Position numbers and translations under genes: made by a program
Shown: positions 1 through 42,292 of the stretch, piece by piece
How positions within the stretch are numbered: position 1 is the first letter of the stretch
How the letters are laid out: each line of letters starts with the position of its first letter
Sequence record: NC_041897.1
Strand: one strand, 5' to 3'
Length of the DNA: 42,292 bases
Source of the DNA: Escherichia phage K1ind1
The notes under the pieces: model-generated
The model's input: the letters and a program-made list of their open reading frames with translations, nothing else
What the model was told of the DNA's origin: nothing
Database searches by the model: none

Positions 1-1251
1 ATGAGTATTCAGCTATCCGCACCGCAGGCGCTGTTCCTGAATTGTGATAACAAATATAAGGCATATGTCGGCGGCTTCGGCAGCGGAAAGACATTTGTTG
101 GCTGCCTTGACCTGCTTACGTTTATGCTCAAGCATCCAGGTACGCGCCTGGGTTACTTCGGCCCGACATACCCGGCTATCCGTGACATCTTCTACCCGAC
201 ATTTGAGGAAGCCGCTAACCTGCTCGGCCTCGATGTGCTGGTTAAATCTGGCGACAAAGAAGTCGTGGTTACTTGCGGTAAGACGGTGCTCGGTACAGTT
301 ATCTGCCGTTCTATGGATAACCCAGGCTCGATAGTCGGCTTCAAAATCGCTGCTGCGGTCGTGGATGAGCTTGATGTATTGAGCCGTGAGAAAGCTGAGC
401 TGGCGTGGAACAAAATAGTCGCCCGTATGCGTCTGGTTATCCCCGGCGTAACTAACCACATCTCTGTCACCACGACACCGGAAGGGTTCAAGTTCGTCTA
501 CGCCAAGTTCAAAGAGAACCCGACGCCGAGTTACTCGATGGTGCAGGCTTCTACACACGAGAACGCGCGATTCCTGCCACCTGACTACATTAGTTCGCTG
601 ACCGAGACTTATCCGGCGCAGTTGATTAACGCGTATCTGAATGGTGAGTTCGTCAACCTTACCTCCGGCAGCGTGTATTACGCATATGACCGCCGTAAGC
701 ACCGCAGCAAAGAGGTAATTCAACCGGGCGACACGTTGTACATCGGGCAGGACTTCAACGTTACGAAGAACGCAAGCGCCGTGTATGTGCAACGTAAAGA
801 CGGCTGGCACGCGGTAGCAGAACTGAAAGGCCTGTTCGATACACCGGATACCGTGCGCGTAATTACTGAGAAGTGGAAGTCGCAAGGCCACCGCATCGTC
901 GTGTACCCGGACGCCAGCGGCAAGAACCGCAAGACCAACTCGGCGTCCATCTCTGACATCGCCCTACTCCAGCAGGCCGGTTTCGATGTACGGGCTAAAT
1001 CCGCCAACCCACCAGTTAAAGACCGTGTTTTAGCCGTGAATACCGCGCTGGAAAAAGGTAAGCTGTGGGTTAACGACCACTTATGCCCGGAGATAGCCAA
1101 GACGCTGGAGCAACAGGCGTACGACGACAACGGAGAGCCAGCTAAAGACGGCATCATTGACCATATGGCGGATGCGCTTGGCTATCCTGTAGTTTACGAG
1201 ATGCCGGTGGTTAAACCAGTAATCAACATCCCGGTGACTTTCGCACTTTAA
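1..1251 (+). CDS. terL: terminase large subunit
   Basis: 416 aa; N-terminal P-loop-like YVGGFGSGKT and Walker-B-like VVDELD; first gene of the morphogenesis block; ATG overlaps the inferred stop of the terS ORF across the window join. Confidence 0.8.
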   Translation: MSIQLSAPQALFLNCDNKYKAYVGGFGSGKTFVGCLDLLTFMLKHPGTRLGYFGPTYPAIRDIFYPTFEEAANLLGLDVLVKSGDKEVVVTCGKTVLGTVICRSMDNPGSIVGFKIAAAVVDELDVLSREKAELAWNKIVARMRLVIPGVTNHISVTTTPEGFKFVYAKFKENPTPSYSMVQASTHENARFLPPDYISSLTETYPAQLINAYLNGEFVNLTSGSVYYAYDRRKHRSKEVIQPGDTLYIGQDFNVTKNASAVYVQRKDGWHAVAELKGLFDTPDTVRVITEKWKSQGHRIVVYPDASGKNRKTNSASISDIALLQQAGFDVRAKSANPPVKDRVLAVNTALEKGKLWVNDHLCPEIAKTLEQQAYDDNGEPAKDGIIDHMADALGYPVVYEMPVVKPVINIPVTFAL

Positions 1252-1263
1252 GAGGATTATTCA

Positions 1264-2745
1264 ATGTTAACTATGAACGGTCAGAATCAGGGTGTTAAGA
1301 CAAAACACCGGGAATGGCTGCATCACTTCGATAAATGGCAGAAGGTGCGCCACGCACTGGAGGGTGACCTTATCCGCTATCTGCGAAACGTCGGGAAGAA
1401 CGAGCCGGACCCAACTTATGCAGCCCAGCGCCAGGAAGAATACGAGAACGGCGCTATCTGCTACAATTTCACCAAGCGTACCCTGTCGGGTATGGTTGGC
1501 TCGGTAATGCGAAAAGACCCGGAGCAGATTATTCCACGTGAACTGGAATACCTGTTACGCAATGCCGATGGCTCGGGTGTCGGCCTGTGGCAGCACGCGC
1601 AGGATACGCTGATGGAGATTGACTCGGTGGGTCGTGGCGGTTTACTGGTGGATGCGCCGGAGACAGCGGCAGCGACGGCAGCCGAACAGAACGCCGGATT
1701 ATTAAACCCGGTCATCGCATTCTATACCGCAGAGAACATCATCAACTGGCGACTCACTCGCGTAGGCTCTGTTAACCGCGTTACGATGGTAGTGCTGCGT
1801 GAGGTATGGGAATATTCAGAACCTGGAGCCGAGTTTGAAACCAAGTTTGGGGAACAATACCGCGTTCTCGACTTGATTGACGGGCGCTACCGTCAGCGCA
1901 TATACCGATTCGATGCGGAAGGCGGCGCGCAAGACGAAGTAATAGAAATCTTCCCGGAACTGGGCGAACAGTTGCGCGGTAAAATCCCGTTCACGTTCAT
2001 CGGGGCCAGCAACAACGACGCGACGGTTGATGACGCGCCTTTGCTGCCGTTAGCTGAGCTTAATATCGGGCATTTTCGCAACAGCGCAGACAATGAGGAA
2101 TCTAGCTTCGTTGTAGGCCAGCCCACTCTGTTCATCGCCCCCGGTGAGAACATGAGCATGGTGCAATGGAAAGAGGCCAACCCCCACGGCGTACGTATGG
2201 GTTCACGTTCGGGCCACAATATCGGCTACGGCGGCAACGCGTTTCTGGTCCAGGCGGGAGAGAATAACCTCGCCAAACAGAACATGTTGGATAAAGAGAA
2301 TCAGGCAATCCAGATTGGTGCACAGCTTATCACGCCTACGCAGCAAATCACCGCCGAATCCGCTCGCCTGCAACGTGCTGCCGATACGTCCGTAATGGCG
2401 ACCATTGCGCGTAACGTAAGCATGGCGTACACCGAAGCGTTGCGTTGGGTGGCTGCGATGCTGGGTCTACGCGAAGGAACGGAAATTGAGTTCAAGCTGA
2501 ATATGGAATTCTTCCTGCAACCAATGACCGCTCAGGACCGTGCGCAGTGGATGGCAGACATTAATGCCGGTTTACTACCGGCAACTGCTTACTACGCCGC
2601 GTTGCGTAAGGCTGGGGTAACTGACTGGACTGACGAGGAGATTACAACGGCTATTGAGGATGCACCTGTGCCGTTAGGCGCTGTTACTCAGGTAACTGGC
2701 GAGATTCCGCAGTCGGCGCAACAGCAGGATGCCACCCAGCAGTAA
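1264..2745 (+). CDS. portal protein
   Basis: 493 aa ORF immediately after terL; size, position and acidic C-terminus typical of portal proteins. Confidence 0.7.
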   Translation: MLTMNGQNQGVKTKHREWLHHFDKWQKVRHALEGDLIRYLRNVGKNEPDPTYAAQRQEEYENGAICYNFTKRTLSGMVGSVMRKDPEQIIPRELEYLLRNADGSGVGLWQHAQDTLMEIDSVGRGGLLVDAPETAAATAAEQNAGLLNPVIAFYTAENIINWRLTRVGSVNRVTMVVLREVWEYSEPGAEFETKFGEQYRVLDLIDGRYRQRIYRFDAEGGAQDEVIEIFPELGEQLRGKIPFTFIGASNNDATVDDAPLLPLAELNIGHFRNSADNEESSFVVGQPTLFIAPGENMSMVQWKEANPHGVRMGSRSGHNIGYGGNAFLVQAGENNLAKQNMLDKENQAIQIGAQLITPTQQITAESARLQRAADTSVMATIARNVSMAYTEALRWVAAMLGLREGTEIEFKLNMEFFLQPMTAQDRAQWMADINAGLLPATAYYAALRKAGVTDWTDEEITTAIEDAPVPLGAVTQVTGEIPQSAQQQDATQQ

Positions 2746-3858: not shown

Positions 3859-4319
3859 TGATGGGCTTTTTCAAAGTAACTGATGTACCGTCACGTCGCG
3901 TAGTCCAGTACGCCCGCGTGTCTGGCTCTGGTGAGAACGTGGTGTTTATTGATGATGAAAGTGTACTCGGTACACCCGAAGACGATATGCCGTTTGCAGA
4001 TAAAACCGGTATTGCGTTACCCGCGGCGGGCATGCTTTATGAAATTCCGTATCTGGCGGATGCAGGTGACGTGTATTTCTCGGTGCAACCGAAAGACACC
4101 GAGCTGGTCGACGGTAGCGCCACCATCACCGTCGAAGTTAAGGCGGGTAAAGCGCCGTGTGTACTGACCTGGTACAAAGACGGCAAGGAAGTGGTAAACG
4201 CCCCAGAAGAGGCTTTGTCTCTGACGGTTAATGCTGTCGGTGAATACTTCGTTAAAGTCACCGATGCCGATGGGGTAGAGGCCGTCAGTAAAGCGGCGAA
4301 GGTTACTAAGCCAGAATAA
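3858..4319 (+). CDS. Ig-like (Big_2-type) domain protein, possible capsid decoration
   Basis: 153 aa; C-terminal beta-rich segment with TWYKDGKEV motif typical of phage Ig-like domains; start overlaps upstream stop (TAATG). Confidence 0.5.
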   Translation: MMGFFKVTDVPSRRVVQYARVSGSGENVVFIDDESVLGTPEDDMPFADKTGIALPAAGMLYEIPYLADAGDVYFSVQPKDTELVDGSATITVEVKAGKAPCVLTWYKDGKEVVNAPEEALSLTVNAVGEYFVKVTDADGVEAVSKAAKVTKPE

Positions 4320-4323
4320 ACTG

Positions 4324-4345
4324 AAGCCCCGAAAGGGGCTTTTTA
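4324..4345 (+). terminator. rho-independent terminator
   Basis: AGCCCC-GAAA-GGGGCT hairpin followed by TTTTT. Confidence 0.6.
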
Positions 4346-4614
4346 GTGCCTGTGATTATTCCAGTTATTCCACTCAATTGTAAATGTTGGAATAAACTAT
4401 TCGAATAGTCGACTTTTCACCAAAAATGTGCTAAGCTCCACCTGAGCTTGTGAAGTATGAACAAGCGACCGCGGCGCGGCAGGTAACGGAGCCGGACGTT
4501 AAGTCCGAGTGTAGTTACGCTGACGCGTTCGGAAGGGCCATACTCTATTGCTTGTGTAAAAAGTAACTGGTTTACTGAGATTACGCCGTTTCTATGTTTA
4601 AATGATAAGTACTA

Positions 4615-4641
4615 GCGCCCCGCTTTAAGGCGGGGCTTTAC
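4615..4641 (+). terminator. terminator-like hairpin
   Basis: GCCCCGC-TTTAAG-GCGGGGC stem-loop followed by TTT; ends a 300-bp non-coding stretch. Confidence 0.45.
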
Positions 4642-4660
4642 TTATCGAGAAAGGGGAAAC

Positions 4661-5047
4661 ATGAATCTTAAAGCAACTGTCGTAGCGGGAGCATGTTTCA
4701 TCATCCTGACTTACGCACACGGCATCTACCAGTATCGCATCGGCTGGAACGAAGGCCGGGCCAATCTCGTTTCACAGCAACAGCAGAAAGCACAGGCTGA
4801 GTTAGCGAAGAAAACACAACGGCAGCAGCAGGATGAATCAAAGGCCGCGGCTGCTGACAGCGAAGGCAAGACGAAATCAGAGGTGATTACCCGTGAAGTC
4901 GTTAAGTACATTAAAACGCCTGGTCGCAGCGTGTGCACTTTTGACCCTGAGCGCGTGCAGCTCAAGTCCCGCGCCGTCGCAAACGCCAATTCCATCCCCG
5001 GATATGACGATGATGCAGCCGCCGTGCAAACTGGCCCCGCCAAGTAG
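4661..5047 (+). CDS. i-spanin (Rz-like)
   Basis: 128 aa; N-terminal transmembrane segment (VVAGACFIILTYAHGIY) then Q/A/K-rich coiled-coil; overlapped by a lipoprotein ORF in the +1 frame. Confidence 0.6.
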   Translation: MNLKATVVAGACFIILTYAHGIYQYRIGWNEGRANLVSQQQQKAQAELAKKTQRQQQDESKAAAADSEGKTKSEVITREVVKYIKTPGRSVCTFDPERVQLKSRAVANANSIPGYDDDAAAVQTGPAK

Positions 5048-5156
5048 CGACGCCGACGAGGATTTAGCTATCGACGTTCAGAATGCCGAATGTGTACGGC
5101 AACTGAGACTGAAAGTGTTCATGTTGCAGGATTACGTGAGGAATATTCTGGAATAG
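4893..5156 (+). CDS. o-spanin (Rz1-like) outer-membrane lipoprotein
   Basis: 87 aa; GTG start with GAGGTGA RBS; lipobox LLTLSAC followed by Pro-rich sequence; begins inside the Rz-like gene in +1 frame and extends past it. Confidence 0.6.
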   Translation: MKSLSTLKRLVAACALLTLSACSSSPAPSQTPIPSPDMTMMQPPCKLAPPSSDADEDLAIDVQNAECVRQLRLKVFMLQDYVRNILE

Positions 5157-5238
5157 TTGCCTTGCATGTTGGAATAATTTATTCTTGACATGTAAATCCG
5201 GGTGGCCCGGATTCCAACGTCCAGGGGACATACTGACT

Positions 5239-5940
5239 ATGAATCGTTTTTTACATTATCCGTTCCAGGAAGAAGCTGGGGCAGAAGATAAAGCCGGTGG
5301 CGGTGATGCGCCGAAAATGTTCACCGCGGAAGAAGTTCAGGCGCTGATTGAGAAAGAAGTTGCCGGGCTTAAGGCCAATCAGGAAGCATTACTGGCGGAG
5401 AAGAAAGAAGCCGCCCGTAAAGCAAGAGAGGCCGAAGAAGAACGGCAGCGCGCGCACCAGGAGGCGTTAAAAGCCGCTGGTAAGATGGACGAGTTCGAAA
5501 AGACGATTCGTAGCCAGTATGACCCGGTGTTAGCCGAGAAAGATGGTCGCATCTCTAAAATGGCAGAGCGCATCCTCGGTAGCGAACGTAAAGCGGTGTT
5601 AGGCTCTTTCGCAGGTGACTTTATTACCCCGGAAGCAGTGGACATTCTTGCACCGTTCGTTAAGACTGAGTTCGAAGGCGATGATGTGGTTACTAAGTTT
5701 GTCGGCGCAGATGGCAACGTAATCACGACTGACCCGGAACAGTTCCGCAAATACCTGCGCGAACACAAAGCGTTTTCGCATTTGATTAAAGCAAATGCAG
5801 CTTCCGGCGGCGGGGCTTCCGGTGGCAAAGGCGGCGGGGCCGCACCAGCGTTTAAAGACATGAGTGAAGCGGAGCGTTTAGCTCTGTATAAATCGAACCC
5901 TGCCGAATTTGAACGGCAACTTAAAGCCCTGAGGAAATAA
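5239..5940 (+). CDS. capsid scaffolding protein
   Basis: about 233 aa from ATG 5239; highly charged, A/E/K-rich coiled-coil; immediately upstream of major capsid gene; ORF-track start 5185 is a TTG inside a promoter-like region. Confidence 0.55.
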   Translation: MNRFLHYPFQEEAGAEDKAGGGDAPKMFTAEEVQALIEKEVAGLKANQEALLAEKKEAARKAREAEEERQRAHQEALKAAGKMDEFEKTIRSQYDPVLAEKDGRISKMAERILGSERKAVLGSFAGDFITPEAVDILAPFVKTEFEGDDVVTKFVGADGNVITTDPEQFRKYLREHKAFSHLIKANAASGGGASGGKGGGAAPAFKDMSEAERLALYKSNPAEFERQLKALRK

Positions 5941-7007: not shown

Positions 7008-7032
7008 GAGAGGGACTTCGGTCCCTCTTTTC
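7008..7032 (+). terminator. rho-independent terminator
   Basis: GAGGGAC-TTCG-GTCCCTC hairpin followed by TTTTCATTT. Confidence 0.65.
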
Positions 7033-37128: not shown

Positions 37129-37630
37129 CAAAAACGAAGTATTCGAGCACCTGATTGACCAGCTACGGCATCAGGTAAATAACAACCGGTGCGAAGACCT
37201 GGCGCATGAGGTGCAGATTAAGGAGTTGCGGGAAGACAACATTAAGAAATCTGAGCACATATCGCACCTGACCGGGCAAGTTAAGGAGTTGCGTCTGGCA
37301 TTGGCCGAGGCTACTGGTGACGTGGAGGCATACAAACTTATCCGCAAAGGTGCGTACGGTTCGGAGCAATCTGGTTGCCGAAAAGAAGATACGCAGGAAT
37401 GTGACCACAATTGGATTATCGCTCCAGGATTGTTTATTGCCGAAGGCCACAAGGACAACGTGCCCGGTAGCCTGTTTTGCTGCGAATGCGGCAAGCGTGA
37501 GTGGGACGGACTTGAGTATGGGGCAACAGCCTGTACACAGGAGTGCAAACACAGTTTCTATTATGTAATAACAGATGGCTCCGCGCCGTTCGGTACGAAA
37601 GTATGTAAAACGTGTGGGGAATACTTCTGA
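37115..37630 (+). CDS. hypothetical protein with coiled-coil N-terminus and Cys-rich C-terminus
   Basis: 171 aa; CCECG and CKTCG pairs. Confidence 0.45.
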   Translation: MMVSNKNEVFEHLIDQLRHQVNNNRCEDLAHEVQIKELREDNIKKSEHISHLTGQVKELRLALAEATGDVEAYKLIRKGAYGSEQSGCRKEDTQECDHNWIIAPGLFIAEGHKDNVPGSLFCCECGKREWDGLEYGATACTQECKHSFYYVITDGSAPFGTKVCKTCGEYF

Positions 37631-37833
37631 TGACCAGCATCTTATTTATCTGGGTACTGTCGGCGGGCCAGATGCAACTAGCGGCATCGGAAACGTTTTA
37701 TTCGATGGAGGCGTGCCAGTCAGCGGCACGCGCCGCAGAGAACGCGCACTTTCTGTTTCAGGGTGACAAGCCCAACGATTCAGAGGTACGCGCTATCTGC
37801 TCACCTAAGCGACTTGGTAAACAGGAGAAATAA
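37630..37833 (+). CDS. small protein with N-terminal signal/TM segment
   Basis: 67 aa from ATG 37630 (ATGA overlap); MTSILFIWVLSAG hydrophobic N-terminus. Confidence 0.4.
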   Translation: MTSILFIWVLSAGQMQLAASETFYSMEACQSAARAAENAHFLFQGDKPNDSEVRAICSPKRLGKQEK

Positions 37834-38201: not shown

Positions 38202-38510
38202 TTGGATAAATTTACTGAAACAGTGACGGGGTGGCTTCTCGCCGCCGCACTGGTCGGTGGATTGGTCGGGCTAAGACAACATAAAAAGTCTATATCCGGG
38301 CCGATTGACGGACTGGTATTTCTTCTCACCGGCTTCGCGTGTGCTATTTTCGGTGCACCTCTTGCCGCTCAATGGTTCGGTATTACCGGTGAGCGTGAGA
38401 TAGCTGGCCTCGGATTCATCATTGCCATTCTCTGGATGCCTATCTATTCCCGCCTTTCTGGCATCGTATCGGGTGGCGATATTGCCCGCCCAGGAGGACC
38501 GCATGACTGA
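38202..38510 (+). CDS. holin-like membrane protein
   Basis: 102 aa; TTG start; three predicted TM segments; immediately upstream of endolysin. Confidence 0.5.
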   Translation: MDKFTETVTGWLLAAALVGGLVGLRQHKKSISGPIDGLVFLLTGFACAIFGAPLAAQWFGITGEREIAGLGFIIAILWMPIYSRLSGIVSGGDIARPGGPHD

Positions 38511-38775
38511 GCTATTCTGGTTTGTCACAATGCTTTCAATGGGCGCTTCGTCCCTGTTCAACGTGTATAATGAACGCGTGGACGACGGGCTGTTCGGGCG
38601 TGTTCTCTATATCCTGACTGCTATCGTCTGTGCCGCCGGATGTATTCACCTGTTACAGGGCAGCATGTCGCCTACGCTGCCTGAGACATTAATCACATTA
38701 GTCGCGCTGCGCCAGATTCGCCAGGCGTGGCTGTCATACGGAGGACATAAGCGTGTCTCGAAATATTTCAGATAA
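38503..38775 (+). CDS. second holin/antiholin-like membrane protein
   Basis: 90 aa from ATG 38503 (GGAGGA RBS); two to three hydrophobic helices; overlaps endolysin start. Confidence 0.4.
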   Translation: MTELFWFVTMLSMGASSLFNVYNERVDDGLFGRVLYILTAIVCAAGCIHLLQGSMSPTLPETLITLVALRQIRQAWLSYGGHKRVSKYFR

Positions 38776-39238
38776 TGGATTGCATTTCTGTGCCGCGTTC
38801 GAGGGATTCCGCGGAACTGCGTATCGCGCTACGCCGAACGAGAAGTACCTGACTATTGGTTATGGTCACTACGGGCCAGACGTAACACCAGGTAAGACCA
38901 TCACACCAGGACAGGGCTTGCTGTTACTGAATCGCGATATGGCTAAGGCTGTAGCTGCTGTTGACGCAGCAGCACACCATTCGCTTACACAGGCACAGTT
39001 CGATGCGGTGTGTGACCTGGTCTATAACGTGGGGGCTGGCGTGATTTCGGCTACTACCGGTACAGGTAAGGCACTGCGCTCCGGTGATATCGCGACGTTA
39101 CGGGCTAAGCTGGCGCTGTTCATCAACCAGAACGGCAAACCACTACTTGGCCTGCGTCGCCGTACAGCCGGGCGTCTGGCGCTGTTCGACGGTAAACCGT
39201 GGCAAGAGGCTGAGGCTATCGGTAGGGCGGTTAAATGA
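38753..39238 (+). CDS. endolysin, GH24 lysozyme (T4/lambda R-like)
   Basis: 161 aa; catalytic-region pattern HFCAAFEGFRGTAYRA ... IGYGHY typical of phage lysozymes. Confidence 0.75.
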   Translation: MSRNISDNGLHFCAAFEGFRGTAYRATPNEKYLTIGYGHYGPDVTPGKTITPGQGLLLLNRDMAKAVAAVDAAAHHSLTQAQFDAVCDLVYNVGAGVISATTGTGKALRSGDIATLRAKLALFINQNGKPLLGLRRRTAGRLALFDGKPWQEAEAIGRAVK

Positions 39239-39367
39239 TGGACGAATACGAAGGCGTTTAGTAAACTTACATCCACGCTGTTTGTGCCTGCATACTAAGC
39301 CCCGGTAAACCCGAAGCAGCAGCCCAAGCGGTGGAGACTGCGTAGGGTTCAGGGGCTTATGCCCGAA

Positions 39368-40545: not shown

Positions 40546-40776
40546 ATGTTTCATGAATTAAAGATATTACCTGAGCATTTTGAGCCTGTTTTAGCAGGCG
40601 TTAAGTTGGCGGAACTTCGATTAAACGACCGTAACTTTAAAGTGGACGATACTTTGTGTCTGAGAGAATACGAAAACGGTGGGTACACAGGCCGTATCGT
40701 TTACCGCCGCGTTATTCATGTTGCGGACGTAGGGGCTTACCTACCAGGGTATGTACTATTAAGTATGGAGGATTGA
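40546..40776 (+). CDS. DUF3850 / ASCH (PUA-like) domain protein
   Basis: 76 aa; ELKILPEHFEPVLAGVK..ELRLNDRNFKVDDTLCLRE pattern typical of this phage-associated family. Confidence 0.45.
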   Translation: MFHELKILPEHFEPVLAGVKLAELRLNDRNFKVDDTLCLREYENGGYTGRIVYRRVIHVADVGAYLPGYVLLSMED

Positions 40777-41656: not shown

Positions 41657-41750
41657 GTACATCCTGCCCAATCACCTTATATAATCCATTTAGACGCGTA
41701 GGGCGCGTCTGGTGCGCTCTGATGGTCAGACGCATATGCAAGGGGATTAT

Positions 41751-42292
41751 ATGAAGCTGAAACTCAAGCAGCCATCGCCAGAGGTGGTGCAAGCTGCACA
41801 TGAAGAAGCTGTTAGCGCAAACCGCCGACGTAAACGACCGCGCGGTAAACAGAGCCTTTATCAATCGTCCCGTAATTCCGCAGCGTTGTGGGACCCGGAC
41901 TATTGCGACGCGTTAATCGAGTTCTTCGACCGCACGTCATGGGAACTGGTGCCTACATCTAAGGGTGACGAACGCCCACTGATTCAGGATAAACCGCCGT
42001 CACTGGCCCGCTTTGCCTTACACATCGGCGTCACTATCCCTATTATTAAGCTATGGCTGCGTGAGATTCCAGCATTCGCAGAAGCCTGGGAGACCGCACA
42101 GGCACTGGAAGAGGCATACTTCACTGAGACCGGGGCCGCGGGCATCTCGGCTACATTTGCTGCCGCTAAGCTGAGCCTCGGCAAAGAGAAACCAGTTGAA
42201 TCCACCGAAGAAACGGTACCGACCGAGATTATTTTTAGTGTTGCAGAGCCTGTAGGTAAAATTGTAACAACGAATATGGGTGAGGTAGAGGA
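41751..42292 (+). CDS. terS: terminase small subunit (3' end runs off the window; closes onto position 1-4 if the molecule is circular)
   Basis: ORF open to the window edge with AAGGGGA RBS; position directly upstream of terL; at least 180 codons; the ORF was absent from the track because no stop lies inside the window. Confidence 0.55.
   Translation, partial: MKLKLKQPSPEVVQAAHEEAVSANRRRKRPRGKQSLYQSSRNSAALWDPDYCDALIEFFDRTSWELVPTSKGDERPLIQDKPPSLARFALHIGVTIPIIKLWLREIPAFAEAWETAQALEEAYFTETGAAGISATFAAAKLSLGKEKPVESTEETVPTEIIFSVAEPVGKIVTTNMGEVE

Follow-up and report, generated by a model that had tools for sequence, protein, structure and literature searches.

Organisation of the locus

The window analysed in this study, i.e. 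the whole stretch of 42,292 nucleotides from Escherichia phage K1ind1 (NC_041897.1), carries between a head-decoration gene and the scaffold gene (ATG at position 5239) two overlapping genes, encoding proteins of 128 and 87 aa residues, which are predicted to specify an i-spanin and an o-spanin, respectively. The coordinates of these genes, of the signals that surround them and of the holin and lysozyme genes are given in Table 1.

Table 1. Coordinates of the features discussed in this study (positions are those of the window)
Feature	Position	Strand	Remarks
Terminator-like hairpin	4324-4341		upstream of the pair
Hexamer cluster TATTCC-AGT-TATTCC, 17 nt, GGAATA-AAC-TATTC	4357-4403		just upstream of the 4409-4437 promoter-like site
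Promoter-like site TCGACT-17-TGcTAAGCT (extended -10)	4409-4437	+	from conservation
Conserved non-coding leader, approximately 200 nt	4440-4645	+	from promoter-like site to the 4617-4636 hairpin
Leader core, three-tier hairpin of approximately 72 nt	4465-4536	+	from covariation
Terminator-like hairpin GCCCCGC-TTTAA-GGCGGGGC then TTTACTTAT	4617-4636	+	ends 24 nt before the i-spanin ATG
Predicted i-spanin gene, 128 aa, ATG start	4661-5047	+	ORF call
Predicted i-spanin transmembrane helix	about residues 5-21		a predicted long helical stalk comes next; single periplasmic Cys92 in the protein
Two-frame region, 155 nt	4893-5047	+	i-spanin C-terminus; o-spanin signal peptide and linker
Predicted o-spanin gene, 87 aa, GTG start, +1 frame	4893-5156	+	ORF call
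Second GGAATA cluster	5140-5185		spans the o-spanin stop and scaffold spacer; overlaps promoter-like 5157-5185
Promoter-like site TTGCCT (5157-5162)-17-TATTCT (5180-5185)	5157-5185		between o-spanin stop and scaffold ATG; conserved
Holin gene	38202-38510	+
Second holin/antiholin gene	38503-38775	+
Lysozyme gene, soluble T4-type	38753-39238	+	PF00959

In a megablast comparison against phage records, positions 4300-5600 of the window matched 349 records in all and were found to be 99.8% identical, over their full length, to Escherichia phage K1ind2 (GU196280/NC_041898; Kagunavirus, Guernseyvirinae), from whose record the window differs by a few substitutions at the spanin locus and by indels elsewhere in the genome. 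The window represents a K1ind2-like Kagunavirus genome that is complete and circular: the ORF of the small terminase subunit crosses the window end and finishes in the first four bases of the window, and as it thereby reads across the end into the start the sequence represents a closed circle. The window was opened at the ATG of the large terminase gene, as is the K1ind2 record; since headful packaging has been predicted for one member of the Guernseyvirinae (PMC6763661), this map origin is arbitrary.

Sequence features of the predicted spanins

The presence of a 128-aa ORF with an N-terminal transmembrane helix, as proposed in an earlier note made from the raw sequence, was confirmed with exact coordinates. 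The gene is preceded by a Shine-Dalgarno sequence (AGGGG, positions 4652-4656), and its product displays a Kyte-Doolittle maximum of 2.04 over residues 5-19 and no other hydrophobic segment. In a single-sequence AlphaFold2 model residues 3-62 form one long helix with block-mean pLDDT values of 77-93, and residues 73-124 mostly score below 50, so that the C-terminal half of the model is of low confidence; for the "Jersey" i-spanin subfamily, two helices connected by a linker with beta strands have been predicted by Kongari et al. (2018; PMC6139136). The protein is 100% identical to gp06 of K1ind2, which is annotated as an Rz-like spanin, and matches phrog_2536 ("Rz-like spanin") in the PHROGs collection at 1.8e-56. 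Searches of Pfam returned for this protein only DUF2514 (E = 0.015, 15.7 bits versus a cut-off of 26) and Nucleoside_tran (E = 0.073), both of which are sub-threshold.

The second gene is likewise the GTG-initiated ORF that had been put forward as encoding a lipoprotein with a Pro-rich body in the +1 frame. A Shine-Dalgarno sequence of its own (GAGGTGA) is located at positions 4880-4886, its spacing from the start codon being suitable, as it is in the first gene, and the encoded N-terminus, MKSLSTLKRLVAACALLTLSAC, comprises an n-region with K2, K8 and R9, a 10-residue h-region (LVAACALLTL) and the lipobox LSAC, whose Cys22 is encoded by positions 4956-4958; the residue at +2 after the lipobox Cys is Ser, with no Asp there. 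The mature part of the protein contains nine Pro among its 65 residues and consists of a Pro-rich linker followed by a Pro-free C-terminal segment. It is 98.9% identical to its K1ind2 counterpart and matches phrog_5672 (4.6e-30) and phrog_1267 (1e-20), both of which are described as "Rz-like spanin", and no Pfam match was obtained for it at E ≤ 0.1. The lipoprotein assignment is made at the level of signal-peptide and lipobox pattern, and at that level it was upheld by the lipobox-type Cys that every relative examined has at residue 22 or 23 (see below). An alternative lipobox, VAAC at Cys14, was rejected, its h-region being only four residues long and Cys14 being missing in Jerseyvirus homologues.

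A six-frame scan of the whole genome for lipoprotein signals yielded four rows, among which the predicted o-spanin ORF was the only credible one, the remaining three being two internal starts in the holin ORF and one out-of-frame ORF in a tail gene. A u-spanin of the T1 gp11 type was also considered: the 87-aa lipoprotein is devoid of a C-terminal hydrophobic segment, and no lipobox ORF in the genome fits this type. Similarly, the genome scan detected no second spanin or u-spanin near the endolysin, the ORF at 39084-39308 having no family matches in Pfam or PHROGs.

Conservation of the two reading frames

Forty-seven related loci were gathered from IMG/VR and from several annotated phages, and the 496-nt pair was extracted from each. 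The 45 distinct pair loci could be aligned without gaps, and the stop codon of the i frame was located at the position seen in the window in 40 of them and displaced by one codon, to either side, in the other five. Cys92 of the predicted i-spanin proved invariant in this set, as did Cys45 and Cys67 of the predicted o-spanin, the latter two at the positions given by Kongari et al. (2018). The overlap of the two ORFs in the +1 frame, which had been claimed from the sequence, extends over 155 nt. In the part of the pair that is read in the i frame only, variation was highest at the third codon position of that frame (0.266); the same position was the most variable one in the overlap (0.238), which indicates that the i frame dominates the constraint there.

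This dominance, together with the GTG start, might be taken to mean that only the 128-aa protein is real and that the 87-aa ORF is a by-product of sequence composition. However, the o frame lacks an internal stop in all 45 distinct relatives, and in the 109 nt past the i-spanin stop variation at the third position of the o frame reached 0.265, compared with 0.093 at the first position and 0.039 at the second. Furthermore, the start codon, GTG in 40 relatives, is ATG at the same position in the other five, the lipobox Cys is conserved along with the two invariant cysteines, and in addition to the PHROG matches (to 4.6e-30) tblastn detected the protein in 663 phage records, mainly of Salmonella and Escherichia phages. 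The by-product explanation is very improbable and would appear to be effectively refuted by the alignment of the 45 relatives; by the same alignment, the spanin pair is judged not to be a chance feature.

The +1 relationship of the two ORFs also raises the question of a programmed +1 ribosomal frameshift, by which the N-terminal part of the i-spanin would be fused to the C-terminal part of the o-spanin, and ribosomal frameshifting is indeed annotated in this gene neighbourhood in an old GenBank entry for MB78, a related phage. The site annotated in MB78, however, is situated in the scaffold gene (p26/p28) and not in the spanin ORFs, and the o ORF possesses its own Shine-Dalgarno sequence, start codon and a complete signal peptide, which would be pointless inside a fusion protein. 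Since both proteins are, moreover, retained in relatives whose overlap amounts to only 8-41 nt, we regard such a frameshift as exceedingly improbable and retain the reading of two separately initiated genes.

Genomic context and distance to the holin and endolysin genes

Holin-like genes and a lysozyme had been placed at 38202-39238, and a holin gene, a second holin/antiholin gene and a lysozyme gene with a PF00959 domain were found there. The distance of approximately 33 kb that was derived from these positions holds on the linearised map, but not on the circle, on which the endolysin stop precedes the i-spanin start by 7,715 nt, both genes being on one strand. The larger figure is due to where the map was opened, and the case illustrates how a linear map may inflate distances on a circular phage genome. 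The annotated genes that intervene on the circle are all co-oriented and comprise small ORFs, both terminase subunits, the portal, head morphogenesis and decoration genes.

The separation of the spanin genes from those of the holin and endolysin is nonetheless real and was borne out across the lineage; it had already been stated for the subfamily in the Guernseyvirinae genome announcement by Schulenberg (PMC6763661). In Jerseyvirus AG11, Dhillonvirus KarlBarth, Pantoea phage AH01 and St162 the pair is likewise flanked by head morphogenesis/decoration genes on one side and scaffold/capsid genes on the other, a position thus shared by Kagunavirus, Jerseyvirus, Dhillonvirus and an unclassified Pantoea phage. 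The relatives carry differing reverse-strand inserts on either side of the locus.

The plasticity of this region is of relevance to an alternative interpretation, according to which the pair would be a membrane protein and a lipoprotein with a role other than lysis, such as superinfection exclusion or receptor masking (compare the Llp lipoprotein of T5 and the Cor lipoprotein of phi80), carried as a moron-like insertion at a variable site within the head gene cluster. Besides the differing inserts, this interpretation draws on the promoter-like site and terminators that precede the pair, on the lack of linkage to holin and endolysin, and on the circumstance that the role of the Jersey family is based, in the available account, on alignments and predictions. 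Conversely, the two-component spanin architecture was matched in every respect tested, including a periplasmic Cys on both partners; the pair is the sole spanin candidate in a genome that encodes holins and an endolysin; unlike typical morons, the two genes have stayed together at the same place in several genera; and the pair has been curated as a spanin by spanin specialists. A non-lysis role is for these reasons considered improbable, and the pair is treated as a spanin pair in what follows.

Transcription signals around the pair

The earlier note had located the pair between two terminators, which was not confirmed: both terminator-like hairpins lie upstream of it, and the next terminator found on the + strand is that at positions 7008-7029, past the major capsid gene. 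The U-tract of the 4617-4636 hairpin is interrupted, and in two independent relatives (L002 and L019) compensatory changes preserve its stem. As this hairpin precedes the i-spanin ATG, spanin mRNA would have to come from read-through, and expression of the spanins would most likely depend on read-through of this structure by transcripts initiated at the 4409-4437 promoter-like site or at points farther upstream. That site hardly varies among 13 relatives, most of which have TTGACT as opposed to TCGACT in K1ind1; it scores below the threshold of a consensus scan, so that the promoter is a putative one. The counts of a sigma-70 consensus scan did not exceed shuffled expectation in any region scanned, and all promoters discussed here are accordingly inferred from conservation.

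A further hairpin (positions 5196-5214), which has no U-tract, is present upstream of the scaffold gene and exhibits a compensatory change in Jerseyvirus (AUCC..GGAU to CACC..GGUG). Given this conserved hairpin and the promoter-like site at 5157-5185, the spanin and scaffold genes need not share a promoter, and the scaffold and capsid genes may have a start site of their own. With regard to the proposal that the spanins are expressed with the capsid genes, a common timing is plausible and a common transcript conjectural. In the only Kagunavirus RNA-seq time course that was found, that of K1B4, the genes for the lysozyme and the capsid and one for head morphogenesis were all assigned to the "middle" class (PMC12645636); the text of that paper does not mention the spanins, and its supplements contain no phage expression table. 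The literature search on promoters and terminators of Jersey-like phages retrieved nothing useful.

GGAATA/TATTCC hexamers occur as clusters at only two places in the 42-kb genome, and these flank the spanin pair. Both clusters contain the exact 12-mer ATGTTGGAATAA; the layout of the upstream cluster is conserved in Jerseyvirus despite diverged flanks, and the downstream cluster is conserved from Kagunavirus to Jerseyvirus. The clusters look like candidate binding sites of a regulator. TGT-N12-ACA sites were absent at both clusters, and the ORF at 40546-40776 ("RNA-binding protein, similar to P2"), which was considered as a late activator of the P2 Ogr type, was dismissed, as it encodes instead a DUF3850/ASCH-domain protein.

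The conserved leader RNA

The 315-nt spacer in front of the pair (positions 4346-4660) holds the promoter-like site, a hairpin of approximately 72 nt that is supported by covariation, and a terminator. In conservation this spacer surpasses its neighbouring genes, and it displays 90-99% identity in 179 phage records, including those of phages whose i-spanin protein is only 68-74% identical. Analysis of the leader using RNAalifold returned a long hairpin and the terminator, with compensatory changes. A small ORF within it (positions 4450-4566), which is annotated as a hypothetical protein in phage Shashou, was rejected as a gene on account of frameshifting indels and truncations in relatives.

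Built solely on Kagunavirus sequences, a covariance model of the 72-nt core detected the diverged Jerseyvirus leaders upstream of the spanins at 36-40 bits. In an alignment of 23 distinct sequences, which was fitted to the model and hence favours the structure, 96.4% of cells were paired as compared to 29-40% in slid controls, the variety of pair types still being substantial; both sides had changed in 11 of the 23 pairs, and the covariation score amounted to 0.404 versus 0.156 in shuffles, none of 500 of which reached it. The model furthermore revealed a second copy of the element in many Kagunavirus genomes. In Shashou this copy (positions 37558-37631) lies in the leader of the rightward early operon, where it is followed by a terminator-like hairpin, and the promoter and the first 47 or so transcribed nucleotides are common to both copies; in sister phages the operon headed by the second copy also carries the holin and endolysin genes. 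The K1ind1 genome contains the copy in the spanin leader only. Phages AH01 and St162 harbour at the same place a different, longer structured leader (z = -3.59).

Searches against Rfam gave no match in the window at gathering thresholds and none for positions 4300-5300 at E ≤ 1, and only chance-level matches for four related loci; the leader RNA was without a match in 5,426 E. coli genomes, and no description of it was found in the literature. With its succession of promoter, structured RNA, terminator and genes, the region is suggestive of cis-acting control of read-through, and it is possible, if rather doubtful, that the leader RNA represents a cis-acting antitermination or attenuation element that would gate read-through into the spanin, scaffold and capsid genes and thereby tie the spanins to the late programme. 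A trans-acting small RNA, or an element of mRNA processing or stability, fits this arrangement equally well.

Discussion

Employing a computational analysis of the K1ind1 locus, we conclude that the two overlapping genes most probably encode the two-component spanin of a K1ind2-type Kagunavirus, belonging to the published "Jersey" family of overlapped spanins and acting in lysis by the spanning-complex mechanism (estimated probability approximately 0.88). As predicted from the sequences, the pair displays the architecture of two-component spanins, i.e. adjacent and overlapped genes, the i-spanin gene first, with a periplasmic Cys on both partners. The proposal of an Rz/Rz1-like spanin pair thus stands, in agreement with the PHROG matches, the public annotation and the listing of K1ind2 in the Jersey family: in RefSeq both K1ind2 genes are described as "Rz-like spanin" with the note "overlapping gene", and their orthologues in Shashou were annotated as i-spanin and o-spanin by the Center for Phage Technology. 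That the raw sequence alone sufficed for the author of the earlier note to recognise the spanins is worth recording.

The mechanism can be outlined on the paradigm of the lambda Rz/Rz1 proteins. The N-terminal helix of the 128-aa protein would hold it in the inner membrane, with a largely helical domain reaching into the periplasm. For the 87-aa protein, translation in the +1 frame would begin at a GTG of its own, served by a separate Shine-Dalgarno sequence. After export this protein would receive a lipid on Cys22 and be processed by signal peptidase II, and, because its residue at +2 is Ser, the Lol system would direct it to the outer membrane. Binding of the C-terminal regions of the two proteins to each other, with the conserved cysteines forming intermolecular disulfides, would then yield a complex reaching across the periplasm. 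Once the murein has been destroyed by the action of holins and lysozyme, the spanin complex would fuse the inner and outer membranes and so complete lysis.

The genes, their identification as spanins, the overlap, the conserved cysteines and the separation from holin and endolysin are already known from GenBank/RefSeq and the literature, and the upstream RNA element may be the only part that is new. Should read-through into the spanin and capsid genes be governed by this leader RNA, a new case of RNA-based control of late genes would be at hand, in a widespread group of coliphages and salmonella phages that are candidates for therapy. The lambda pR'-6S RNA-tR' region and the put antiterminator RNAs of HK022 are promoter-RNA-terminator leaders, and a comparison of layout alone reveals the same order of a promoter, a structured transcript of approximately 200 nt, a terminator and late or lysis genes in K1ind1; the likeness to these systems extends to the second copy, which heads another operon in sister phages. 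The put RNAs of HK022 are two short stem-loops, whereas the K1ind1 element is one long three-tier hairpin, and no Q-like protein was identified.

As regards the proteins, no match of either one to the Pfam families of lambda Rz or Rz1 was obtained at E ≤ 0.1, and the resemblance of the pair to Rz/Rz1 is therefore one of function and architecture and not of detectable homology. In lambda, and by prediction in K1ind1, a type II inner-membrane protein is combined with an outer-membrane lipoprotein specified by the +1 frame of the same DNA, and both pairs share periplasmic cysteines, a Pro-rich lipoprotein and a predicted role in disruption of the outer membrane. In contrast, Rz1 is fully embedded in Rz in lambda and the K1ind1 genes are merely overlapped; the lambda spanin genes are the last of the S-R-Rz/Rz1 cassette and those of K1ind1 are located among head genes; and the K1ind1 o-spanin possesses a Pro-free C-terminal segment. 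Helices have been predicted for the Jersey o-spanins, and lambda Rz1 is described as being without helical structure, by Kongari et al. (2018; PMC6139136). The spanins of T4, pseT.3/pseT.2, resemble those of K1ind1 in being unlinked to holin and endolysin (same source), which makes unlinked spanins an accepted arrangement, but they differ in having a separated architecture and belonging to an unrelated sequence family, and in T4 the holin and endolysin genes are also unlinked to each other.

The closest comparison is with the Jersey family itself. The 27-member overlapped i-/o-spanin families of this name comprise, among others, the spanins of phages Jersey, SETP3, K1G, K1H and K1ind1-3, K1ind2 being named in both the i- and the o-spanin family (Kongari et al. 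2018, BMC Bioinformatics 19:326, PMC6139136). In the available portion of that report the family is treated through alignments and predictions only, and no experiment on any Jersey-family spanin was found in the literature examined. According to Kongari et al. (2018), the overlap in phage Jersey amounts to 155 bp and Cys45 and Cys67 of the o-spanin are conserved in the family. The K1ind1 pair is like the Jersey family in its overlap, in these two cysteines and in its genomic position, and nothing of substance sets it apart.

A structured leader precedes the i-spanin gene

The region directly upstream of the i-spanin gene consists of a conserved non-coding leader, in which a promoter-like site is followed by a structured transcript of approximately 200 nt and then by a terminator (coordinates of all features are listed in the table below). 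The predicted 72-nt core hairpin of this leader is backed by covariation across Kagunavirus and Jerseyvirus, as 96.4% of cells are paired and both sides have changed in 11 of the 23 pairs. Matches to the spanin leader were found neither in Rfam nor in E. coli.

The spanin pair is flanked on either side by a cluster of GGAATA/TATTCC hexamers, these being the only two such clusters in the 42-kb genome. The exact 12-mer ATGTTGGAATAA occurs in both (at 4384 and 5166), as does a GGAATA-N3-TATTC palindrome, and the arrangement is kept in Jerseyvirus despite divergence of the adjoining bases. The clusters may represent binding sites of a regulator.

Features of the spanin locus and of the related loci compared with it
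Feature	Sequence	Position	Strand	Remark
Conserved non-coding leader	Window	4346-4660	+	Directly 5' of i-spanin
GGAATA/TATTCC hexamer cluster	Window	4357-4403		Upstream flank of spanin pair
Promoter-like site of spanin leader	Window	4409-4437	+	
Core hairpin of spanin leader	Window	4465-4536	+	72 nt
Terminator hairpin of spanin leader	Window	4617-4636	+	
Lipobox region	Window	4947-4961		o-spanin residues 19-23
GGAATA/TATTCC hexamer cluster	Window	5140-5185		Other flank of spanin pair
Hairpin 3' of promoter-like TTGCCT-17-TATTCT	Window	5196-5214		Preserved by compensatory change in Jerseyvirus
TTTAAAG heptamer	Window	5851-5857		Inside scaffold gene
TTTAAAG heptamer	MB78, L055 (X87092.1)	2252-2258		Annotated frameshift site
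MB78 spanin-homologue regions	L055 (X87092.1)	1232-1555 and about 1050-1390		
Strongly structured non-coding leader	L006 (Pantoea phage AH01)	1785-2062		Different, longer
Strongly structured non-coding leader	L007 (St162)	about 1770-2060		Different, longer
Second copy of leader element	Shashou (MK931440)	37558-37631		Rightward early operon leader

Spanin genes, scaffold start and genome ends

Among close relatives the predicted lipidated Cys of the o-spanin lies at residue 22 (LSAC-S) or 23 (LAS-C), a switch achieved through substitutions alone, without an indel. The bases of this lipobox region also encode i-spanin residues ~96-101, which vary alongside the switch (PERVQL to DARVLL).

Between the spanin pair and the scaffold gene (5157-5241), the promoter-like sequence TTGCCT-17-TATTCT is followed by a hairpin, the Shine-Dalgarno sequence AGGGGA and the ATG at 5239. 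The RefSeq annotation of K1ind2 starts the scaffold CDS at a TTG equivalent to position 5185, with the consequence that the CDS would take in the greater part of the promoter-like site as well as the hairpin, while that of the sister phage Shashou places the start at the equivalent of ATG 5239, which looks like the true start. Immediately past this spacer, the scaffold N-terminus differs in some relatives.

Salmonella phage MB78 has a GenBank record from 1995 that annotates the heptamer TTTAAAG as a "ribosomal frame shifting" site in the scaffold homologue (p26/p28), and the same heptamer is present in the K1ind1 scaffold gene. What that record calls ORF "p11.5" is the frame of the o-spanin, with an ATG further upstream taken as its start. 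No gene is annotated there for the i-spanin homologue, whose N-terminus is apparently in a different frame from the remainder, a break which is probably an old sequencing error.

The small-terminase ORF (about 41710-42292) runs over the end of the window into bases 1-4, where its stop codon shares bases with the ATG of the large terminase (GAGGA|ATGA at the 42292/1 junction). It follows that the window represents a whole, circularised genome and that any distance measured linearly over this junction is an artefact.

Leaders in related phages

In AH01 and St162, both Guernseyvirinae, the leader located between a promoter-like sequence and the i-spanin gene is of a different kind, its final hairpin lying just 5' of the ribosome-binding site (structure z = -3.59 for AH01); the covariance model built for the K1ind2-type hairpin detects neither of them. 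The K1ind1 genome contains a single copy of the leader element, whereas in many sister phages, such as Shashou, it occurs again behind the same promoter in the leader of the rightward early operon.
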